DNA of 64,000 nt, from the NCBI RefSeq assembly GCF_003019035.1, contig NZ_CP027447.1; one strand, written 5' to 3'. Positions 1 through 11,611 of the stretch are shown here, one piece after another; within the stretch, counting starts at the first letter, position 1; every line of letters begins with the position of its first letter. The position numbers and the translations under genes are program-made. The notes beneath the pieces are model-generated. The model made no database searches, was not told where the DNA came from, and worked only from the letters and a program-made list of their open reading frames with translations. Source of the DNA: Escherichia coli (lineage in GTDB: Bacteria > Pseudomonadota > Gammaproteobacteria > Enterobacterales > Enterobacteriaceae).

Positions 1-1
1 G

Positions 2-634
2 GAGCTGCGCGTTGAAACCATATCCTGCTGGCTGGCCCGCACAATTATTCAGACAAAGCACTATTCCCGCCGTTTTGTGAATAACTCTTACCTCCACCTG
101 GGAGTGTTCAGCGGACGCGATCTGGTTGGCGTTCTCCAGTGGGGATATGCCCTTAACCCCAACTCAGGTCGTCGTGTCGTGCTTGAAACGGATAACCGGG
201 GCTATATGGAGTTGAATCGCATGTGGCTACACGACGACATGCCCCGCAACTCTGAATCACGGGCCATCAGCTACGCGCTGAAAGTTATCAGATTACTGTA
301 TCCGTCAGTGGAGTGGGTTCAGTCCTTTGCTGACGAACGCTGCGGACGCGCAGGCGTTGTGTATCAGGCGTCGAATTTTGATTTTATTGGCAGCCATGAA
401 AGCACGTTCTACGAGCTGGATGGTGAGTGGTATCACGAGATAACGATGAACGCAATTAAGCGCGGTGGACAACGAGGCGTGTATTTACGGGCTAATAAAG
501 AGCGTGCCGTGGTGCACAAATTTAATCAGTATCGCTACATCAGGTTCCTGAACAAGCGAGCAAGGAAGCGACTAAATACTAATCTATTCAGGATCCAACC
601 ATATCCAAAATCAACTCTGACTAGTATCAAATAA
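2..634 (+). CDS. Prophage protein, 5' partial (frame is open from the window start); tentatively Mom-like (GNAT-fold DNA-modification family)
   Basis: Frame open from nt 2 with no upstream stop, so the N-terminus lies outside the window; last large rightward ORF before the Mu-type end, which is where mom sits in Mu. Family assignment is from memory only. Confidence 0.35.
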
Positions 635-769
635 CTTATTTATTCCTGCTGAAAAGCAGCTCCTCATGGCATAAAATTGTTCACGTGAGTTTAAAATGAC
701 CAAATGGCAGTACAGTATTTGGTCATTTTATGGGGTGAATTTTAAAGTCAAAACGATGGTAAGGTGCAT

Positions 770-1105
770 ATGAAAAAAATACTCATAGCAGTACTACTTT
801 GCTTTGGTGTTCTTTCTGCTAATCAGGCAATAGCGGCTGTTACCTTAAGCGGTAAGTATCCTGCATGCATATCTGCTAATGAATTCGAGCGATTAAGCTC
901 AATTTTGCAACACGAAGATCAAGAGGCGTTTGAAGAGATCTTTAAGACATCATGCTTTATGCCTAAAAAGGGGGTTAAAGTTGATAAAGTTGTTTCTATG
1001 GGGTGGACCAGTGGAGTTGCGCATGTCAAAGTTTATGTAAAAGGCAATCTTTACGATCTTTGGACTAACACCGAAAATCTTCAGTCCGAGAAGGCTGGTA
1101 AATAA
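770..1105 (+). CDS. Small secreted hypothetical protein (about 111 aa) with N-terminal signal peptide; candidate prophage cargo gene
   Basis: ATG at 770 preceded by TAAGG about 7 nt upstream; N-terminus MKKILIAVLLCFGVLSANQAIA is signal-peptide-like; sits between the last phage ORF and the Mu-type end. Confidence 0.5.
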   Translation: MKKILIAVLLCFGVLSANQAIAAVTLSGKYPACISANEFERLSSILQHEDQEAFEEIFKTSCFMPKKGVKVDKVVSMGWTSGVAHVKVYVKGNLYDLWTNTENLQSEKAGK

Positions 1106-1330
1106 CGCTGTAATCAACGTGTAATCACATCTCCTACCAGCTATCGCCTGATAAAGTTAGGTGATAGCTATTTCAATACTCTCTAGTTTCACTGAAAGCA
1201 CGAAACTTAATACCTCCATTCCAGATTGCTTAATAATCGAGCATTTTTATCTTGAATGTTTTTGCGCGCTTTATCAGCCATACCCTAAGTGATCCCCATG
1301 TAATGAATAAAAAGCAGTAATTAATACTGC

Positions 1331-1407
1331 TGTTTCATTTGAAGCGCGAAAGCTAAAGTTTTCGCATTTATCGTGAAACGCTTTCGCGTTTTTCGTGCGC
1401 CGCTTCA
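1331..1407 (+). repeat. Mu attR-like end: three MuA-binding-site-like repeats (R3 1331-1352 inverted, R2 1358-1380, R1 1381-1407)
   Basis: TGTTTCATTTGAAGCGCGAAAG (1331-1352); reverse complements read TTTCACGATAAATGCGAAAAC and TGAAGCGGCGCACGAAAAACGCGAAAG; all share a ...CGAAA... core. Confidence 0.7.
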
Positions 1408-1706
1408 TTCAGGGTGAACGTCCACTCTTTTTGATCGTCAGACGCTTTCCAGCTACTTGCCAGATCGCCTTCAACGTCGGTTGAGCCTTTATCACCGTCC
1501 GTTTTGTACTGAACCAGTCGCTGATAAGACGGGTAGGTCACTGTCCAGTCGTTATTATCAATTGTCACCGCTGGGTCGAGGGTTTGTGGGTCGGCAGCTT
1601 TACCGATCACCAGCATATCTTTCGGTACGGCGGCGTGCGCAACCGGCATTGTTGTGGCAAGGACGATCGCGAGCAATGTAGGACGAAACAAAATCGATCT
1701 CTTCAT
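1368..1706 (-). pseudogene. ddpA: ddpA 5' fragment (D,D-dipeptide periplasmic binding protein), truncated by the prophage insertion
   Basis: Begins MKRSILFRPTLLAIVLATTMPVAHAAVPKDMLVIGKAADPQTLDP... (DdpA N-terminus); frame runs into the Mu end and stops after 12 foreign codons; full DdpA is about 516 aa. Confidence 0.8.
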
Positions 1707-1719
1707 GACAGTTTCCTGA

Positions 1720-2301
1720 TTAACTGGCGTGCTGTGTGCCAGGGGATATAAAACAGGTGAATTGATCAGCGAGTAGTGGGTAACTCGCTGCCTGGGGTAA
1801 TTCGAAGTGCCACCATTCGCTCGGGATACCGACAAAGCCACCGCCAGTCATAATCGCATTCAGCAACAGCCGATTGCGCTGAGCGGCTGGCGGGACGGAA
1901 GGGTGATAAGCATGGGAACGTTCGTGCATTTCATCGAACTCTGCACCCATATCCAGTATGTTCCCGTGCTCATCACGAAGCGTCAGGTCGATCGCTGTGC
2001 CACGGCTGTGATTAGAACCGACCGCCACATCAACAACATATTGCGGGTCTGGGCAGGCTTGCCACAACATCGCCTGTGCTTGTTGTGGGCGATACGCATC
2101 GTAAATCACCAGTTGTAAGCCTGACAGCTGGGCGATACTGATACTTTTCGCCAGCGCAGTAATCGCATCCTTGTGTAACAGACAACGCGCTTGCTGATAA
2201 ATAGCTTTGCCTGTGATGTTATCAGCACAGGCGTATTTCAATTCGATCTCCAGATCAGGGAAGATCACGGCTAAATCAACCAGTTCGGTGGTATCCGACA
2301 T
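1720..2301 (-). CDS. ddpX: D-Ala-D-Ala dipeptidase
   Basis: 193-aa ORF matching E. coli DdpX; 13 nt upstream of the ddpA start. Confidence 0.92.
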   Translation of the reverse strand: MSDTTELVDLAVIFPDLEIELKYACADNITGKAIYQQARCLLHKDAITALAKSISIAQLSGLQLVIYDAYRPQQAQAMLWQACPDPQYVVDVAVGSNHSRGTAIDLTLRDEHGNILDMGAEFDEMHERSHAYHPSVPPAAQRNRLLLNAIMTGGGFVGIPSEWWHFELPQAASYPLLADQFTCFISPGTQHAS

Positions 2302-2558
2302 AAACGGTTCCTGTATAAGACAAAAATTGCTGCGCTTTCCGCTTATGCAGATCTCATGCCACGCCGGGATAAGCGCCAGAATGCTGGCTTAAAGTTATAT
2401 TTTTTAACTTTTGATCAACATTTGTGCATCGTAATGCAGTTTTGGTGCAAGAGGGGAAGTTAAGGAAGGAATCTCCCGGAATCGTAGCTGAAATCACAGT
2501 ATTTAAGTGACAGTGTCACGTTAAAGGAAAACCCGCGAGTGCGGGCGAGAGGAATTTG

Positions 2559-4958
2559 TCAGATTTTCAGCGGTAACACGCTGCTCATCCAGCCTGGAAT
2601 TTCTTCGGCGGGCAGGGGGCGGGAAAAGAAATATCCCTGAATAACGCGACAGTGGATCTTGCGTAGCATCTCAAATTGCTCTTTGGTTTCGACGCCTTCC
2701 GCCACGACGGTTAAATTAAGGCTTTGCCCAATGCTGGTAATGGCTTCAAGTAAGGCAAGGATGCGTTTTTCGGTCAGACAACGATCGACAAAACTTTTGT
2801 CAATTTTGATTTCCGTTACTGGAAGACTGACTAAGCGGGATAATCCGGAAAAGCCCGTGCCAAAATCATCTACCGATAAACCCACGCCCATATCGCGCAG
2901 GATCTGAATGCGTTTAAAGATTTCGGTATCGTGTTCCATCATCATGCTTTCCGTGATTTCCACCGTCAGCTGGTGGCCGTTAATACCCCAGGCTTGCATT
3001 GCATCAGACACCTGATTAGGCAGCTGATTACTGCGAAAGTGCAGCGCCGACAAGTTCACGGATAACGCCGGGATATGAATATTCTGGCTACGCCATTCTG
3101 CTAACTGACGGCAAGCTTCCGCGATGACCCAGCGTCCAATATTTTCGATTTCACCGATCTCTTCTGCGAGAGGAATAAACCGTGAAGGGGGCACATGACC
3201 ATGCAGGGGATCGTGCCAGCGAGCAAGGGCTTCGATGCCGTACAGTTCACCCGTTTCTGCGAAGATTTGTGGCTGGTAAACCAGTTTCAGTTGGTTATTG
3301 CTAATTGCTTCTTTCAGCGCCGCGCCTAAAACCAAACGCTCTTTTACCATTTCGTTCATCGCCGGGCTGAAGAACTGCCAGCCGTTACCGCCATTTTTGC
3401 GAATAAAATCCATTGCATTGTGAGCAGTGGAGAGCAGGTAATCGCGGTTTTTACCCACGTCGTAGCTGATGCCAATGCTCAAGGTGAGCGGGAATGGTTT
3501 ATCGTCAATCATTATCGGCTTGCTGACCACATTCCGTAGCTCATCGGCGATCTGCGTAATGTTACTGACGTCGTTTTCCAGGCTCACGAGGACAAACTGC
3601 GTACCTTCGATACGACAGAGATATTGATCCGGTTTGAGTTTTTCACGAAAGCGATTGACCACTTCCAGCAATGCCTGATCGGCCCACGCATAGCCAAGGC
3701 TATCAATCACATCCTGAATATGGTCAACACCGATGAGATACACCACCGGAGAGACGGCTTTGTCGACCAGGTCATCGAGGTAATTGTGCAGGTTATTGCG
3801 ATTTGGCAGACCGGTCATCGGATCAAATTGGATGAGTTGTTCAATATGCTGACGGCTTTTTTCCTGTTCCAGCGCCAGCGCGGCCATATGCTGGCTAATA
3901 TCTGCCACGCGTTCGATAAAGGCGCTGGTTTCTGCTCCTGACGAGGTTTTAATTTGCAGGATCCCCGCCGGCGCACCATCACGCTGACGAATGGTCGCTG
4001 ACCAGCTTTGCGCATTTTGAACTTCTGCACCGTGCGAAGATGACGCCCAGTGTATCGGCATCCCGTTGCGCAGCGCGAACAGCGAAACATGCGATTCGTT
4101 GAGTACAGATTCGATGTTACGACAAATGATTTCCCCCATTTCATGAAATGGCGGGCTGCTGCACATGGCGGCGAGAATATTGCCTTCAAGCTGGCGGATT
4201 TGCCGTTCTTCGGTGATATCCGAGAAGGTCATTACCAGGTTCTGCAGATGCGCGAGCACGTCATAAACCGGGCTGATAGAGGCTTTAATCCAGATTTTTT
4301 CACCGGTGCGCGTCAACAGCAGAAATTCATCCTGATCGCGGGCGGTTTTCCATAGCAACTGTTGTAAACGAATGCGGTTATCGGCAGGGAATTCAGGAAT
4401 GTTCAGGAGTGTATCGGGCTGCATACCGCTGGCTTCGCTAATGCAGTAACCAAACATTTCGGTAAATGCGCGATTGCACTGCACAATATGGCGTTCCGGA
4501 TCGAGGACAATCACCGGTCGGTCGAGATGGTCAACAGCAATAATCAATTGTCGGGTCTGTTCTTTTTGCGCCATTTCTACGCTGGCATCCCGTACCAGCG
4601 CCAGGTAATAAACTTTCCCCTCGGCGCTCACTTTCGATAGCGCAAAACGGGTCCAGATTTTACTGCCGTCTTTTTTCTCCAGCTGCAGCTCCCGACTCAT
4701 CCCCTCGACGCGCGCTTTACCGCCTTCACGGTTATGACGAATGTATTCAGGATGCGCAGGACGCAAATCCCGCGGAATCAGCATATCAATGTTATTGCCA
4801 ATGACTTCTTCACGTTTGTACCCCCAGAGCTTCTCTGCGGCGGGGTTGAAAAACATCACTTCATCATTTTCGTTAATTAACACCGCGCCCATCATATTTT
4901 GCTCAAGGGCGGGGAAAAAAATGCCATCGGCGGCATTATCCGCATCGGTTAGCTTCAT
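2559..4958 (-). CDS. dosP: Oxygen-sensing c-di-GMP phosphodiesterase (heme PAS + GGDEF-like + EAL)
   Basis: Matches DosP from MKLTDADNAADGIFFPALEQ; the supplied ORF has an 8-codon upstream extension. Confidence 0.92.
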   Translation of the reverse strand: MKLTDADNAADGIFFPALEQNMMGAVLINENDEVMFFNPAAEKLWGYKREEVIGNNIDMLIPRDLRPAHPEYIRHNREGGKARVEGMSRELQLEKKDGSKIWTRFALSKVSAEGKVYYLALVRDASVEMAQKEQTRQLIIAVDHLDRPVIVLDPERHIVQCNRAFTEMFGYCISEASGMQPDTLLNIPEFPADNRIRLQQLLWKTARDQDEFLLLTRTGEKIWIKASISPVYDVLAHLQNLVMTFSDITEERQIRQLEGNILAAMCSSPPFHEMGEIICRNIESVLNESHVSLFALRNGMPIHWASSSHGAEVQNAQSWSATIRQRDGAPAGILQIKTSSGAETSAFIERVADISQHMAALALEQEKSRQHIEQLIQFDPMTGLPNRNNLHNYLDDLVDKAVSPVVYLIGVDHIQDVIDSLGYAWADQALLEVVNRFREKLKPDQYLCRIEGTQFVLVSLENDVSNITQIADELRNVVSKPIMIDDKPFPLTLSIGISYDVGKNRDYLLSTAHNAMDFIRKNGGNGWQFFSPAMNEMVKERLVLGAALKEAISNNQLKLVYQPQIFAETGELYGIEALARWHDPLHGHVPPSRFIPLAEEIGEIENIGRWVIAEACRQLAEWRSQNIHIPALSVNLSALHFRSNQLPNQVSDAMQAWGINGHQLTVEITESMMMEHDTEIFKRIQILRDMGVGLSVDDFGTGFSGLSRLVSLPVTEIKIDKSFVDRCLTEKRILALLEAITSIGQSLNLTVVAEGVETKEQFEMLRKIHCRVIQGYFFSRPLPAEEIPGWMSSVLPLKI

Positions 4959-4982
4959 AATTACCTCTGCATCCTGACGCAT

Positions 4983-6365
4983 CTAAAGACTGGCTTTCCA
5001 GAGTTCAACACGGTTTCTACCTCGTCTTTTGGCGATATACAGAGCTTCATCGGCTATTTGAATGAGGCGCTCATAGTCAGGATGACCATTAAACATGGCG
5101 GCACCGATGGAAAGTGAGAGGGCAATATCTTCGCCGTTTGCGGCTTTCAGTTTGGTTTTCTCCACCCGACTGCGAATACGTTCTGCGGTACGTAACGTTT
5201 CGTTTTCCGAAGCTTCAGTCAAAACAATGATAAATTCATCGCCCCCGTAGCGGAAAACATAATCACTACTGCGGACGTTGTCATAAAAGGCCTGAGAGAC
5301 TTTACGCAGAATTTCATCGCCAGTGTTATGGCCCCACGTATCGTTAATCTCTTTGAATTTATCAACGTCAATAATCAGCACTGACAGCGGTGTACCGGTC
5401 CGGTTGGCATGGGCAATTTCGCGTTTGAAGATCGTCGGCAGGAAACGGCGGTTAAGTAATTTCGTCAGTACATCCATACCGACTTCGTGGCGCGATACTT
5501 CTTCAAACAATTCACGCAACAAGGTAATAATTTGCGATACGGTATTTCTTATCTGTAATAAAAATTTCACCCGTAAACTTCTGTTATTCAAATTCCTGGT
5601 GTTACGCATGGTTTGATTGAAAATACCGTCGAAATCCTGAATCAGACGGGAGATATGGCCCACTTCGGCTATGCCGCTAAAATAATGTCGACCTTTATGG
5701 TTAAACCACAGGCCAAAATCAGCCTGGCTTAAAGGCAAACTACTGCCTAAATCAGAATCCAGCAGGACTTTATAGATAATATCTATTTCCCATGAAAGTA
5801 TTGAGGCTATTTGCCGTTCTTTTTCTTCTTCGGCGTTTTCCAGTAACGAGAAGATACGATAGTTTTCATCTTCCTTTGAGGCACTACTGTCACTAAAGGT
5901 AAACGCGCGGGTCATCACCTCCATAGCGATATCAATACTGTTAATAGAGAAATGGTAGACCTGAAGTTTTTCTGCGGCGGAATAATCCGAAGAGAAGATT
6001 ACCGGATAGAGGATTTTTTTCAGCACCCGAAACCCCATCTCGACAATTTCTACCGGAATTCCTATGCGGGCATGCACTTCCGCGACGGTATGCTGGATTT
6101 GTATTAGCCTTTCGACATCGTCAACCTGGGCAGAAAGCACGTTAATAATCCAGCGTTCCATCGCACTTTTCAACTGCCGCTCAACTTGTTCATTACTCAA
6201 GAATTCTTCGGCATGCGGGTCGATGCGGACAATTCGATAAAACTCAATACTCAGATAATGAGCATGCGCAACGGCAATTTCCGCGGCTTTAGCACGAATG
6301 AGCGGATCTGCTTGTTCGACAAGCCCGGTCCACTCATCTTTCATTCTTTTAAAATACATCTCCAT
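4983..6365 (-). CDS. dosC: Oxygen-sensing diguanylate cyclase (globin sensor + GGDEF)
   Basis: 460 aa, contains RYGGDEF; immediately upstream of dosP on the same strand. Confidence 0.93.
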   Translation of the reverse strand: MEMYFKRMKDEWTGLVEQADPLIRAKAAEIAVAHAHYLSIEFYRIVRIDPHAEEFLSNEQVERQLKSAMERWIINVLSAQVDDVERLIQIQHTVAEVHARIGIPVEIVEMGFRVLKKILYPVIFSSDYSAAEKLQVYHFSINSIDIAMEVMTRAFTFSDSSASKEDENYRIFSLLENAEEEKERQIASILSWEIDIIYKVLLDSDLGSSLPLSQADFGLWFNHKGRHYFSGIAEVGHISRLIQDFDGIFNQTMRNTRNLNNRSLRVKFLLQIRNTVSQIITLLRELFEEVSRHEVGMDVLTKLLNRRFLPTIFKREIAHANRTGTPLSVLIIDVDKFKEINDTWGHNTGDEILRKVSQAFYDNVRSSDYVFRYGGDEFIIVLTEASENETLRTAERIRSRVEKTKLKAANGEDIALSLSIGAAMFNGHPDYERLIQIADEALYIAKRRGRNRVELWKASL

Positions 6366-6689
6366 AATTCACACCCTTATAAGGCTGGGAAAGCAGACGG
6401 AATCAAAACGAAACGCAACGTGCGAGATCGACTAACTGCACCATACTCTCCTGAAATATGAAGATATACTGAAAACAAATAAGCGACTTAGGACAGTTTC
6501 AATCTACGCTACTGTTCTTCAGAAGAGTATAGCCCATCGTAATTATTTTTCGGTGACAGCGAATATCGTATGTTTTTTCATGTTCATACTTTTTTTAGGG
6601 GATTTATGACTGTTTAACTAAGTGTGGTTAATTGCGTAGTTAATTTGACTTAAGTAAGCATGATTACTAGTGGGATATTTCAAGAGGGT

Positions 6690-6719
6690 AACAAGCCGGG
6701 GGGAAAGCACCGGCTTGTT
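6690..6719 (-). terminator. Stem-loop downstream of yddW
   Basis: AACAAGCCGG ... CCGGCTTGTT 10-bp inverted repeat. Confidence 0.5.
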
Positions 6720-6738
6720 ACAAAGTAAGAATGGGAGT

Positions 6739-8058
6739 TTAACTGCCCCAACGACTTTGCAGATAGCTGACCGCTTGTTGAGTCTGTGGCTTATTCAGAT
6801 AGTCCTCACGGAACAAGATTGTGCCGCTAATTTCTGGCACGGCATCGTTAAGATCGAGCTGCTTTTTCAGTTCCGGTACGCCGCCGTTAATCATCCAGTC
6901 TGGCTCTATCTTTGAAGGTTCTCCTACTTTATAGAAGGCGATACCGATATACAGGCGGGTCCTGGTCGGTTTAACGACATCCGCCCACCATTTTGCCAAC
7001 ACGTCATAACGCGCGGCACTCCGTGAGAACGGCCAGTAAATTTGGGGAGCAATGTAATCCAGCAACCCTTGTTCCACCCATCGACGGGTATCAGCGTAGG
7101 ATTCGTCATAGGCTGCCGCGCCTCGGGTATCGGAACCGAGCGGATCGTGTGATCGGTTACGCCACACGCCTGCCGGGCTAACGCCAAATTCGACTTCCGG
7201 CTTAATGCTTTTAATGGTGTGCGATACCTTCGCAATTAACTGCTGAGTATTGTTGCGCCGCCAGTCTGCTTTTGACGCAAATGCGCCGCCGTATTTGCGG
7301 TACGTTTCATTATCATTTAGCCGTGAAGCTGGCGACTCAGTATAGAAATAGTCGTCAAACTGCACGCCATCTACCGGATAGCGGGAAACCACTTCCACAA
7401 CTATTGATGTGATCCAGTCCTGAACCTCAGGTATGCCCGGGTCGAGGACAAAGCGATCGCCGGACGTTCTGATCCAGTCGCGGTGTTGCACATAGACGCT
7501 CGCCGGTTGTTGAGACAGGGTGCTATTCAGTTCCCTGATAGTACCGGGCTTCGTATTAACCGATACGCGATAGGGGTTAAACCATGCGTGTACTTTCATC
7601 CCACGCTTGTGGGCTTCGTCGAGCATAAATTGCAGCGGATCGTAACCCGGATTTTCACCAATCTTACCGGTCATAAGATCGGACCACGGCAAAATTTTCG
7701 ATGGCCACAGGGCGGTACCATCCGGCTTGACCTGGAAAAAGACCGTGTTTATGCCGAGACGTTGCAGATGATCCAGTTTGTCGATCATCGCCTGTTGTTG
7801 TACACGTGCCCGGCTGGCGGGGTTACTAATGTTAACCGAGGATACCGGTGGCCAGTCGAGGCGAGACACCGTGGCCAGCCAGATGCCACGCATCGGTTGT
7901 GACGATTGTTGCGTCGTGGCTGGTGGCTTTGAACCCGCTGGTGGTGTCACCATGGACTCTGGAGGCGTGCTTTTACAACTACACAGTAAAAGTGCCAGTG
8001 CAACCAGTATCGCTGGTCTTCTAATCGCTAATTTCTCGTTTCGGGAGCAGATATCCAT
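6739..8058 (-). CDS. yddW: Lipoprotein YddW (glycoside-hydrolase-like family)
   Basis: 439-aa ORF; N-terminal signal with LLLCSC lipobox-like motif. Confidence 0.88.
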   Translation of the reverse strand: MDICSRNEKLAIRRPAILVALALLLCSCKSTPPESMVTPPAGSKPPATTQQSSQPMRGIWLATVSRLDWPPVSSVNISNPASRARVQQQAMIDKLDHLQRLGINTVFFQVKPDGTALWPSKILPWSDLMTGKIGENPGYDPLQFMLDEAHKRGMKVHAWFNPYRVSVNTKPGTIRELNSTLSQQPASVYVQHRDWIRTSGDRFVLDPGIPEVQDWITSIVVEVVSRYPVDGVQFDDYFYTESPASRLNDNETYRKYGGAFASKADWRRNNTQQLIAKVSHTIKSIKPEVEFGVSPAGVWRNRSHDPLGSDTRGAAAYDESYADTRRWVEQGLLDYIAPQIYWPFSRSAARYDVLAKWWADVVKPTRTRLYIGIAFYKVGEPSKIEPDWMINGGVPELKKQLDLNDAVPEISGTILFREDYLNKPQTQQAVSYLQSRWGS

Positions 8059-8135
8059 ATGTGCTGGTTTCCGGTAAACAGATGTGCGCTCATTCTCGTA
8101 CTTATCCCGGTTAAGTCAATACGACAGCAAGCACG

Positions 8136-8163
8136 AAAAAGGGAGCGATGAATTATCGCTCCC
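8136..8163 (-). terminator. Rho-independent terminator after gadC
   Basis: GGGAGCGAT-GAATT-ATCGCTCCC hairpin followed by a T-run on the minus strand. Confidence 0.7.
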
Positions 8164-8188
8164 TTATCTTATAACCATTCAGACATGG

Positions 8189-9724
8189 TTAGTGTTTCTT
8201 GTCATTCATCACAATATAGTGTGGTGAACGTGCACGCGGGTGCAGGAAGAAGTGACCTTTTGGTGCGTTCTGACTGTTGATTGGCTCCAGAGTAACGCCG
8301 GTATTCCCTTTGCCTTTACGATCATGAACAGCATAGAGAATAAAGGGCAGGGCAAGTACCACCAGGAAACTCACGACCAGTAATTCAACATACATATCAG
8401 TAGAGTCACCCTGGATGTTATCCGGCGGCAGGAAGGAAACAATAAACGCCATAATTGAAGTCAGCAGACCGACAATAGCCACGACCAGTTTCACCCCTTT
8501 ACCACCAGGGATATTAAATGTGCGTTTTAAGTCAGGATGTTTGAGAACCAACACAATGTAGCCAATAAACAGCATGAAATAAGCACACAGATAAATCACC
8601 ACCGTCAGCGCCAGTGCGATCAGGAAGGACATGTTGTTACCGCCACCGGTATTGGTGAGGATGATCAACGCGATAGAAGTAATCACCAGCTGCGAAATGA
8701 CCAGCGTTACCGGTACGCCATTTTTGTTCATTTTAGCGAATGCTGCTGGCAGCAGGTTTTTCTGCGCTGTGACATACATCCCGCGAGAAGGACCAACAAT
8801 CCAGGAAGCGATTTCCGCCAGAACACCCAGCAACAGCAGTGCGGAGATCACGCGAACCGTCCACTCAATTTCCGGTGCCACATGTGACATCAGAACGGTA
8901 AAGGTTTGCATTACCCCTGCGGAGAGGTTGATTTCATTACCCGGAATGACCATCGCAATAGACAAACCGCCAACAGAGCTTAAGCAGATTGCCGCCACCA
9001 TCAGTAGTAACATAGCCAGTGGATAGTCGCGCCCGGGGTTGCTCATTTCATTGACGTGGGTTGCGGAAGCTTCAACGCCCATATAACTCAAAATGAAGGC
9101 AACAAATACAACCAGAGTGCCCACTTTAGAGAAGTCAGGGAAGAAGGTCTTCGCATCCATTTCGATAGCAACGGGGGCACCGGAGTGCAGATAAATAGCC
9201 GCTAATGCGATCAAAATAAATGCAGGTAACAGGATACCGGCGAAGAAGCCAACTTTAGCAATTCGCGCCGTGTATTTCGTGCCACCAAACTGCGTTAATG
9301 CCAGCGCCCAAAGAATGATGAGTGCTGCAATAGTTTTGGTAATGGGGTCTTCATTCAGAGCTGGCCATTTCAGGATGTAGGAGAGTGCCCCTAACACGAA
9401 ATAGAGCATCGGAATAAAACCAATGGCGATTTGCAGATAGCCAAATGAGATCGCTGCAAATCCCCATCTCGGCCCCAGAGTATTTGATACCCAGGCGAAG
9501 ACGCCACCTTCTTCCCAGCCGTCGACGGTAGCCATTTCCGCAGCACAAAGTCCCACGGGAATAAACCATAAAATCCCGCCTAATAGCAGGAAGAAGACTA
9601 ATGAAAAGCCCGATGTTGCGAAGGTAGGGTATTCATAAACAGCCATTACCATCGATGCCGTTATGGCAAAGAATCCGAGTAATGTGAGCTGCTTAGCTTT
9701 ACCTGTCTGTACTGATGTAGCCAT
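8189..9724 (-). CDS. gadC: Glutamate:GABA antiporter
   Basis: 511-aa polytopic membrane protein matching GadC; directly downstream of gadB. Confidence 0.93.
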
Positions 9725-9833
9725 ATTATCCCCCTAAAACGGTATTCCTGTCGGAACCGCACCTGTTTTGTTCTGAAGCGTATTCAGAACAATATTTTCC
9801 GTTGCTAATGCCAGTGAACAGACTTTGGAAATT

Positions 9834-9859
9834 GTCCCGAAACGGCTTCGTTTCGGGAC
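9834..9859 (-). terminator. Stem-loop in the gadB-gadC intergenic region
   Basis: GTCCCGAAACG-GCTT-CGTTTCGGGAC, 11-bp perfect stem. Confidence 0.6.
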
Positions 9860-9879
9860 ACCGTTACCGTTAAACGTTA

Positions 9880-11280
9880 TCAGGTGTGTTTAAAGCCGTT
9901 CTGCTGGGCAATACCCTGCAGTTTCGGGTGGTCGCTGAGATATTTCAGGGAGGCTTTGTAGTCTTCCAGCAACAGTTCAGCAAAGTCCATTTCGAAGCCG
10001 CGACGACACATAATGCGCATCACCACGATGTCGGTGGCTTCACCGCCGAGAGTGAAGGCCGGAACCTGCCAGCCGCGCAGACGCAGACGTTCAGAGAGGT
10101 CGTACAGGGTGTATCCCGGATCTTCACCATCTTTCAGTTTGAAGCAAACCGCCGGGATGCCTTCGTCCGGGCGACCGGTACAGATGAACTCATACGGCCC
10201 CAGTTTGGCGATTTCATCCGCCAGATAAGCGGCAACCTGGTAGGAAGCGTTCTGTACTTTGGTATAGCCTTCACGACCGAGGCGCAGGAATTCATAGTAC
10301 TGTGCAATCACCTGACCCGCCGGGCGGGAGAAGTTGATGGCGAAAGTACCAATCTGACCGCCGAGGTAGTCAACGTTGAACACCAGTTCCTGCGGCAGCG
10401 CTTCTTCATCACGCCAGATAACCCAGCCGCAGCCCAGCGGAGCCAGACCGAATTTATGGCCTGAAGCACTGATCGATTTCACACGCGGCAGGCGGAAGTC
10501 CCAGACGATATCCGGAGCGACGAACGGTGCCAGGAAGCCACCGCTGGCAGCGTCGATGTGCATGTCGATGTCGATACCGGTGTCGGCCTGGAATTTATCC
10601 AGCGCATCGTGCAGCGGCTGCGGGAACTCATAGTTACCGGTATAGGTCACGCCGAAAGTCGGCACCACGCCGATGGTATTTTCGTCGCAGGCTTCAATCA
10701 TGCGTTTCGGGTCCATAAACAACTGACCGGGGCGCATAGGGATCTCACGCAACTCCACATCCCAGTAGCGGGCGAATTTATGCCAGCAGATTTGTACCGG
10801 ACCGCACACCAGGTTTGGTTTATCCGTTGGCTTACCTGCAGCTTCCATACGCTTGCGCCAACGCCATTTCATCGCCATCCCGCCAAGCATACAGGCCTCG
10901 GAAGAACCAATGGTGTTGGTGCCAACGGCCTGACCATTTTTCGGTGCAGGCGCATGCCACAGATCGGCAACCATGTTTACGCAACGCAGGTCGATGGCTG
11001 CGGATTGCGGATATTCTTCTTTGTCGATCCAGTTTTTGTTAATGGATAAATCCATCAACTTGTGGACGTTTTCGTCGTCCCAGGTCTGGCAGAAAGTGGC
11101 CAGGTTCTGACGAGCGTTGCCATCAAGATATAATTCGTCATTGATAATCTGAAATGCGACATCGTCGCGCATTTCGTGCAGCGGAAAACGTTTTGATTCT
11201 GCGATAGTGGAAATAGACTTTGCACCAAAACGTGAATCGAGTAGTTCCGACCTTAAATCCGTTACTTGCTTCTTATCCAT
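9880..11280 (-). CDS. gadB: Glutamate decarboxylase beta
   Basis: Matches GadB from [21 protein letters not shown] (466 aa); the supplied ORF has a 23-codon upstream extension. Confidence 0.93.
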
Positions 11281-11359
11281 TTTAAACTCCTTAAAATGAT
11301 TGGATCGCATTAAAAAAGTAGGATTTATCGATAAAGTAAGCAAGTGCAAAGGACTCGTG

Positions 11360-11379
11360 TTTAAATAACAAAATCCTAA
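11360..11379 (-). promoter_or_regulatory. GAD box (GadE binding site) upstream of gadB
   Basis: Reverse complement reads TTAGGATTTTGTTATTTAAA, which is the GAD-box sequence as I recall it. Confidence 0.6.
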
Positions 11380-11611
11380 TGTTATTTATCGCGAGATATT
11401 ATGTGAATTATATTTTATCATTGAAAATCAATATATTACTGAATTCTTGGGTGGTGGCAAGGTGTTTTATGCTGTTATTTTTATGCACTTTCTACGCCTC
11501 CTGAATTATCACGTAAAAATCAGACCTTAAAATATCACTATTAGCACTCGGCTATTATTTTGAACGCATTTATAAAATTATTACATAAAAATGGCGAATA
11601 TTGCTAAAATC

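Follow-up and report, generated by a model that had tools for sequence, protein, structure and literature searches.

The right end of a Mu-like prophage is joined to codon 100 of ddpA, downstream of an intact ddpX, in a sublineage of Escherichia coli

Introduction

In a 64,000-nucleotide stretch of Escherichia coli DNA (NCBI RefSeq assembly GCF_003019035.1, contig NZ_CP027447.1; hereafter the window), the D-Ala-D-Ala dipeptidase gene ddpX is followed by a shortened ddpA open reading frame that ends at the edge of a prophage. A sequence-only reading had taken this arrangement as a ddp operon reduced to ddpX and a ddpA stub, with the transporter genes separated from them by the whole prophage. 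The locus raises the question of what kind of element interrupted ddpA, at which nucleotide it did so, and what became of the operon on either side of the break.

Results

The element joined to ddpA ends in the right terminus of phage Mu

The window covers the final 1,407 bp of the prophage. It begins inside mom, and the prophage left end lies ~35.5 kb outside it; a contig of the same lineage (L050) provides 8.85 kb of the same prophage copy. The features on the prophage side of the window were as follows.

1-634, plus strand: mom (DNA-modification gene of Mu), 3' part, with its start beyond the window edge (Pfam PF25680 Mom, 221.7 bits).
635-1273: AT-rich cargo segment, ~640 bp long, separating mom from the conserved Mu right end (GC 37-40% versus 49-56% in the flanks).
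770-1105, plus strand: ORF111, 111 aa with a signal-peptide-like N-terminus, a candidate moron.
1274-1407, plus strand: Mu-like prophage right end (attR, where Mu has its MuA binding sites), terminating ...CGCCGCTTCA.
1313-1331: hairpin, terminator-like on both strands and followed on the minus strand by a TTTTTATTCAT T-run (consensus scan).

The mom DNA was found to be 95-98.6% identical to mom of Mu, SfMu and D108. The full-length gene (238 aa), with com and gin just upstream, was read in two contigs of the same lineage (L004 and L050), such that the Muvirus right-end gene set gin-com-mom is present, mom in the window and com and gin in these contigs. The last 134 nt of the prophage (1274-1407) were 98.5% identical to the end of phage Mu, and the terminal 27-mer of Mu, TGAAGCGGCGCACGAAAAACGCGAAAG, was detected as an exact match at 1381-1407, where none is expected by chance. 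The terminal sequence recognised by MuA (...GTTTTTCGTGCGCCGCTTCA-3') was likewise present at the right end. Over the shared parts, the prophage was 98.6% identical to SfMu and 97% identical to Mu. By these likenesses in sequence, the element is classed as a Mu-like transposable phage of the genus Muvirus, with the Shigella phage SfMu and Mu as its closest relatives. Since its right end is a Mu terminus, entry by transposition into an arbitrary target is indicated rather than site-specific integration.

The break in ddpA falls after nucleotide 299

The position of the break was determined from an alignment of the window, two intact ddpA alleles and the phage Mu right end, and the following features were placed on the host side of the junction and across it.

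1408-1412: TTCAG (CTGAA on the ddpA sense strand), the first host bases and the predicted right-hand copy of a 5-bp target-site duplication.
1408-1706, minus strand: ddpA stub, nt 1-299 (99 codons plus 2 nt), residues 1-99 as in SCU-301 DdpA.
1368-1706, minus strand: chimeric 112-codon open reading frame of DdpA(1-99) plus 13 Mu-derived codons (NEAAHEKRESVSR), with a TAA stop at 1370-1368.

By this approach, the break was located at 1407|1408. The records of Mu (36,717 bp) and SfMu (37,146 bp) both finish exactly at window position 1407, and thus ddpA retains 299 nt. The ddpA ATG is at 1706, thirteen bases downstream of ddpX, and residues 1-99 are identical to those of the 516-aa DdpA of strain SCU-301, with divergence from residue 100 onward. 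The earlier description of ddpA as truncated by a prophage end is therefore confirmed, but the cut that it had placed after about 112 codons lies after 99 codons and 2 nt, as the last 13 codons of the open reading frame are Mu DNA.

Of this family-5 periplasmic substrate-binding protein, the stub encodes the signal peptide and ~75 residues from the start of the mature part. The SBP_bac_5 model (PF00496) scored 22.4 bits on it, under the cut-off of 32.4 and short of a complete domain, and the DppA and NikA models scored far under their cut-offs. No match to ddpB-F or to the rest of ddpA was detected within the window. An intact ddpXABCDF operon, in the sense of a sigma54 promoter followed by six contiguous genes, was thus not present, ddpA being interrupted at nt 299.

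The same type of phage occupies many sites

The pentamer TTCAG is present as one copy in the intact ddpA (the empty site) of SCU-301 and E7-1N7, and on the ddpA sense strand (CTGAA) it agrees with the Mu target consensus CYSRG at four of the five positions (PMC7350765). In ten other genomes (L026-L035), the identical right terminus was followed by ten different host sequences, and ten left ends were similarly preceded by ten different host sequences. Other genomes carried the same phage at no fewer than 20 distinct loci. Mu-like right ends were detected in 103 of the 5,426 complete E. coli genomes and, among the matches listed, every annotated context was different. Right flanks, left flanks and complete-genome contexts were thus all those of near-random insertion without an att site.

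Two copies of the same phage type were read with both of their flanks. A full-length copy of 36,888 bp in CAXJTI010000001.1 (L027, L042) has TCGGG on both sides, and this related copy carries c, ner, A and B at its left end; a second copy (L035) is flanked on both sides by ATGGC. In addition, prophages that occupy two different chromosomal positions in other strains matched the right 8.85 kb of this one at 99.99% identity, and hence the phage has been mobile recently.

As a separate observation, eight contigs (L004-L008, L051-L053) were found to end at gin or the invertible G segment, about 1-4 kb to the left of window position 1. These assembly breaks are consistent with the presence of both G orientations in the sequenced populations, i.e., with an active Gin invertase.

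Simple insertion is favored over insertion with an adjacent deletion

The reading that we favor as very probable is that a Mu-like transposable phage transposed into the ddpA coding sequence, with its right end joined to ddpA nt 299. A simple insertion would have duplicated the 5-bp TTCAG, would have a left junction of ...TTGTCCTTCAG|TGTATTGATTCACTTGAAG in the orientation of the window and, by the way Mu transposes, would have left the remaining ddpA codons and ddpBCDF ~37 kb off, beyond the left end.

The left junction was sought by several routes. When GTDB representative genomes and IMG/VR were scanned for exact patterns of the right and left junctions (the left pattern being ...GTCCTTCAG|TGTATTGATTCAC...), neither junction was found in either collection. 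A single match to the left pattern in a JGI metagenome (L036) was rejected as an unrelated, AT-rich chance match. Open reading frames predicted to span the left junction, built with the left ends of SfMu, Mu and the L035 copy, had no record on exact look-up, and a homology search with the predicted left-junction open reading frame returned Mu-left-end fusions at other host genes only. When the predicted 3' fragments of ddpA (369 and 318 aa) were looked up, the only lineages retrieved were those with ddpA split by point mutations beside ddpX. For the alleles of the c repressor, DdpC and MaeA, which are common, the longest-contig blocks that were read did not include the contigs of this lineage.

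That no route led to the left junction would also be expected if the insertion had been accompanied by an adjacent deletion or rearrangement that left the rest of ddpA, and ddpBCDF in part or in full, missing or relocated; Mu promotes adjacent deletions and inversions. We regard such an event as unlikely. The misses have technical grounds: the alleles used are common, the blocks returned were the 24 with the longest contigs, and pseudogenes called by PGAP have no entries. In contig ABNBRD020000018.1 (74.9 kb), the final 17 kb were read; another 57.5 kb lie beyond this part and suffice for the rest of the 36.9-kb prophage and ~29 kb of host DNA. The clean 5-bp duplications that flank the same phage type elsewhere also speak against an accompanying rearrangement.

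ddpX and its promoter are retained and are directed into the prophage end

The host features from ddpX outward were as follows.

1720-2301, minus strand: ddpX, D-Ala-D-Ala dipeptidase and VanX homologue, intact (NCBIfam NF007557 equivalog).
2346-2361, minus strand: sigma54 -24/-12 element TGGCATGAGATCTGCA, ~45 nt upstream of the ddpX ATG (pattern match).
2421-2451, minus strand: TGCACC...TGCA...TGCAC repeats upstream of the sigma54 element, a putative NtrC binding region (read from the sequence).
2531-2546, minus strand: GC-rich hairpin and T-run, read as the terminator of the dosCP operon, which sets the ddpX promoter apart from dosCP (consensus scan).
2559-4982, minus strand: dosP (NF008467, 1643 bits).
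4983-6365, minus strand: dosC.

The ddpX product (193 aa) scored 331.3 bits by profile search against NF007557 (cut-off, 176), with residues 1-189 of the 193 matched, and was 100% identical by sequence comparison to DdpX of SCU-301 and E7-1N7, both of which have an intact operon. From 1408 to 11600, the window differs from SCU-301 by five bases, and a single one of these (at 2434) lies in the 257-bp region upstream of ddpX (2302-2558). With a reference-identical DdpX and one SNP in its upstream region, the proposal that ddpX and its promoter region are intact holds. The pattern TGGCAY-N5-YTGCW has a single match in the 64-kb window, that at 2346-2361 on the minus strand. The repeats at 2421-2451 we take to be NtrC sites from the consensus of this regulator.

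The label of stationary-phase promoter given to this region proved incomplete. Dependence on RpoS has been reported for strain EDL933, in which ddpXA is listed among the RpoS-dependent genes (PMC2907692), but experiments have confirmed the documented ddpX promoter as a target of RpoN/NtrC (sigma54), and under nitrogen limitation ddpX is up 104-fold and ddpF 2.2-fold (PMC8743547). As to direction, the earlier reading was correct that the operon promoter is directed into the prophage end, as transcription runs from ddpX through the stub to the Mu right end.

The SNP at 2434 falls within the putative NtrC region. It is an A in the window and in L006-L008, L049 and L051-L053, and a G in the Mu-bearing contigs L004, L005 and L050 as well as in sister strains whose ddpA is intact. 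The position varies inside the Mu-bearing sublineage, and the change therefore arose after the insertion.

Transcription entering from the ddpX promoter probably ends within the Mu terminus

Transcription from the ddpX promoter runs antisense to ORF111 and mom. A candidate stop that it would meet is the hairpin read from 1331 to 1313, with an RNA fold of -14.1 kcal/mol (z = -4.05), which sits 77-95 nt inside the Mu end and thirty-seven nt beyond the stop of the fusion open reading frame, in the Mu-homologous end segment. This hairpin is predicted to terminate transcripts arriving from ddpX, and it might belong to the native mom terminator region of Mu. Its position that close to the end makes long read-through into the prophage doubtful. 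The ddpX promoter would still give DdpX and a 112-residue DdpA-Mu fusion peptide without a binding domain, and the transcripts would most likely stop at the hairpin or, via Rho, in the untranslated antisense region.

A functional role for this arrangement was also considered, in which antisense transcription from the ddpX promoter modulates ORF111, mom or the accessibility of the MuA sites at the phage right end and ties them to the nutrient status of the host, or in which the exported fusion peptide is itself active. The geometry is right for such a role, with the promoter pointed at the phage end and antisense to ORF111 and mom, and the insertion is old enough to have internal SNPs, one of them in the putative NtrC region; if read-in did matter, this post-insertion SNP might reflect selection on it. 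We nevertheless judge a functional role very improbable, since a terminator-like hairpin stands between the promoter and the phage genes, Mu inserts nearly at random and hence its position here is fortuitous, and the fusion has no binding domain.

The junction is inherited within one sublineage

The distribution of the junction was examined in public assemblies. The exact 112-aa fusion product was present on 57 contigs. An identical 41-nt junction was found in five independent NCBI assemblies (L049-L053) and in Logan assemblies of different runs (L004-L008). These contigs were 99.98-100% identical to the window, with the exception of L051 (99.5%), and two of them (L049 and L053) were 100% identical over 14,958 bp. 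Blocks with the DosP allele of the window numbered 141, and 23 long contigs were read from them: 11 carried the insertion and 12 an intact ddpXABCDF. Sister genomes with the same DosP allele (L047, L048 and SCU-301) have ddpA-F intact. None of the 5,426 complete RefSeq E. coli genomes has the ddpA::Mu junction. Taken together, the independent assemblies and the sisters with an intact operon reveal that the insertion is real, inherited and confined to a sublineage that has SCU-301 among its sisters. The junction, on 57 contigs, may serve as a marker of this lineage.

Two further explanations for the junction can be set aside as having next to no probability. The first, a chimeric join of the Mu end and ddpA made in one assembly, would fit the absence of the junction from complete RefSeq genomes, but is refuted by the independent NCBI and Logan assemblies that share the same 41 nt and by the number of contigs with the fusion open reading frame. 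The second, site-specific integration of a temperate phage in the lambdoid manner with ddpA as its attachment site and a recurrent, phage-determined stub, goes back to the earlier treatment of the junction as a generic prophage boundary and fails because the end is a Mu terminus recognised by the transposase, the same phage lies at many other loci and the ddpA insertion is seen in one lineage only.

Outside the ddp region, gadB (window 10348-11068) was found to hold four of the five differences from SCU-301. This cluster may have arisen by gene conversion with the paralogue gadA.

An AT-rich cargo segment distinguishes the prophage from reference Mu phages

Mu and SfMu align to window positions 1-644 and 1274-1407 only. 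The cargo segment between is absent from Mu, SfMu and D108 and had no blastn match among 50,697 phage records or among the 5,426 complete RefSeq E. coli genomes. By contrast, the exact product of ORF111, which is preceded by a sigma70-like promoter at 649-677 (consensus scan), was present on 612 contigs (E. coli and Cronobacter named), in each case flanked by mom and the Mu right end. Related forms were found in Shigella (truncated, 67-78 aa) and Salmonella (113 aa), and homologues of 50-72% identity in Enterobacter, Kosakonia, Citrobacter and Klebsiella.

ORF111 had no match in Pfam or NCBIfam, and its PHROG hits were at E>0.1. Its AF2 model has a pLDDT of 77.5 overall and 83-94 in the mature part; the model had no fold match in the PDB and matched several unnamed phage proteins of ~93-114 aa in BFVD (TM 0.54-0.71, E 1e-5 to 1e-3). 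Rfam had no match in window 1-9000. A widespread group of Mu-like phages thus carries at its right end an uncharacterised gene for a putative secreted protein that is missing from the reference phages, and this by-product of the analysis may be more useful than the ddp finding itself.

Discussion

Relation of the prophage and the allele to known systems

The prophage resembles Mu and SfMu in its right-terminal sequence, in the order gin-com-mom, in having inserted at a CYSRG-like pentamer within a coding sequence and in an insertion site that differs in every host. It differs from the reference phages Mu, SfMu and D108 in the ~640 bp of AT-rich cargo, with its 111-aa open reading frame, between mom and the right end, and its identity to Mu and SfMu, as compared at the right end only, is 97-98.6% and not 100%.

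On the host side, the window shares with the ddpXABCDF loci of K-12 and SCU-301 the ddpX gene, the sigma54 -24/-12 element, the upstream region and collinearity with dosCP. Unlike the K-12 operon, ddpA is broken at codon 100 and ddpBCDF are not contiguous with the promoter. DdpX is a housekeeping homologue of VanX, and the VanX model (NF033115) matched residues 92-170 with 94.5 bits. This score is far under the VanX equivalog cut-off of 320 and there is no van gene context; DdpX is therefore not regarded as a resistance determinant.

Expected consequences of the insertion

Under the simple insertion that we favor, ddpBCDF would be severed from their own promoter. The importer is an ABC system that would be non-functional without DdpA, whatever the expression of ddpBCDF. 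In the intact operon, the ddpB start adjoins the ddpA stop, and hence coupled translation would be lost as well. The net result would be a sublineage that lacks Ddp-mediated uptake of D-Ala-D-Ala yet keeps the cytoplasmic dipeptidase.

The weight of this loss can be gauged from the operon in other strains. ddpXABCDF is absent from 1,133 of the 5,426 complete E. coli genomes (21%), and in the operon-less loci that were seen (L058, L060, L061, L063, L066 and L067) dosP directly adjoins osmC. The 4,293 genomes that have the operon hold 4,300 ddp places, and thus a second intact copy is improbable a priori. In other lineages (L009-L023), ddpA is often a pseudogene, in pieces of 83 and 369 aa or 199 and 318 aa or as 137-aa fragments; at 90% identity the cluster of DdpA N-terminal fragments has 169 members, one of which is on 294 contigs. 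The ddp operon is a dispensable accessory locus, and loss of Ddp import is common in nature. The allele in the window shares with other natural loss alleles, whether whole-operon absence or ddpA frameshift or nonsense mutation, the lack of a Ddp importer. It differs from them in having been caused by a transposable prophage (37 kb) instead of by a deletion or point mutation, and in the retention of ddpX.

A strong phenotype is not expected, as the operon is absent from a fifth of complete genomes and often decayed in others. The changed D-Ala-D-Ala salvage phenotype that had been proposed is plausible and, for the former reason, of low consequence. The ddpA::Mu allele, in a dispensable operon, would be neutral or mildly deleterious. 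It is an ordinary case of insertional inactivation by an element of a known kind, adds to the natural gene knockouts made by a Mu-like phage that is currently mobile, and has little significance past the annotation of the strain.

Gene callers were also found to output routinely fusion open reading frames between host genes and the Mu left end that terminate ...VLIHLKYEKKPGGHWIIRDLMGLDLVGLASL (P0031-P0046). Such fusions could be used to mark Mu-like insertion sites and to catalogue them across public assemblies.
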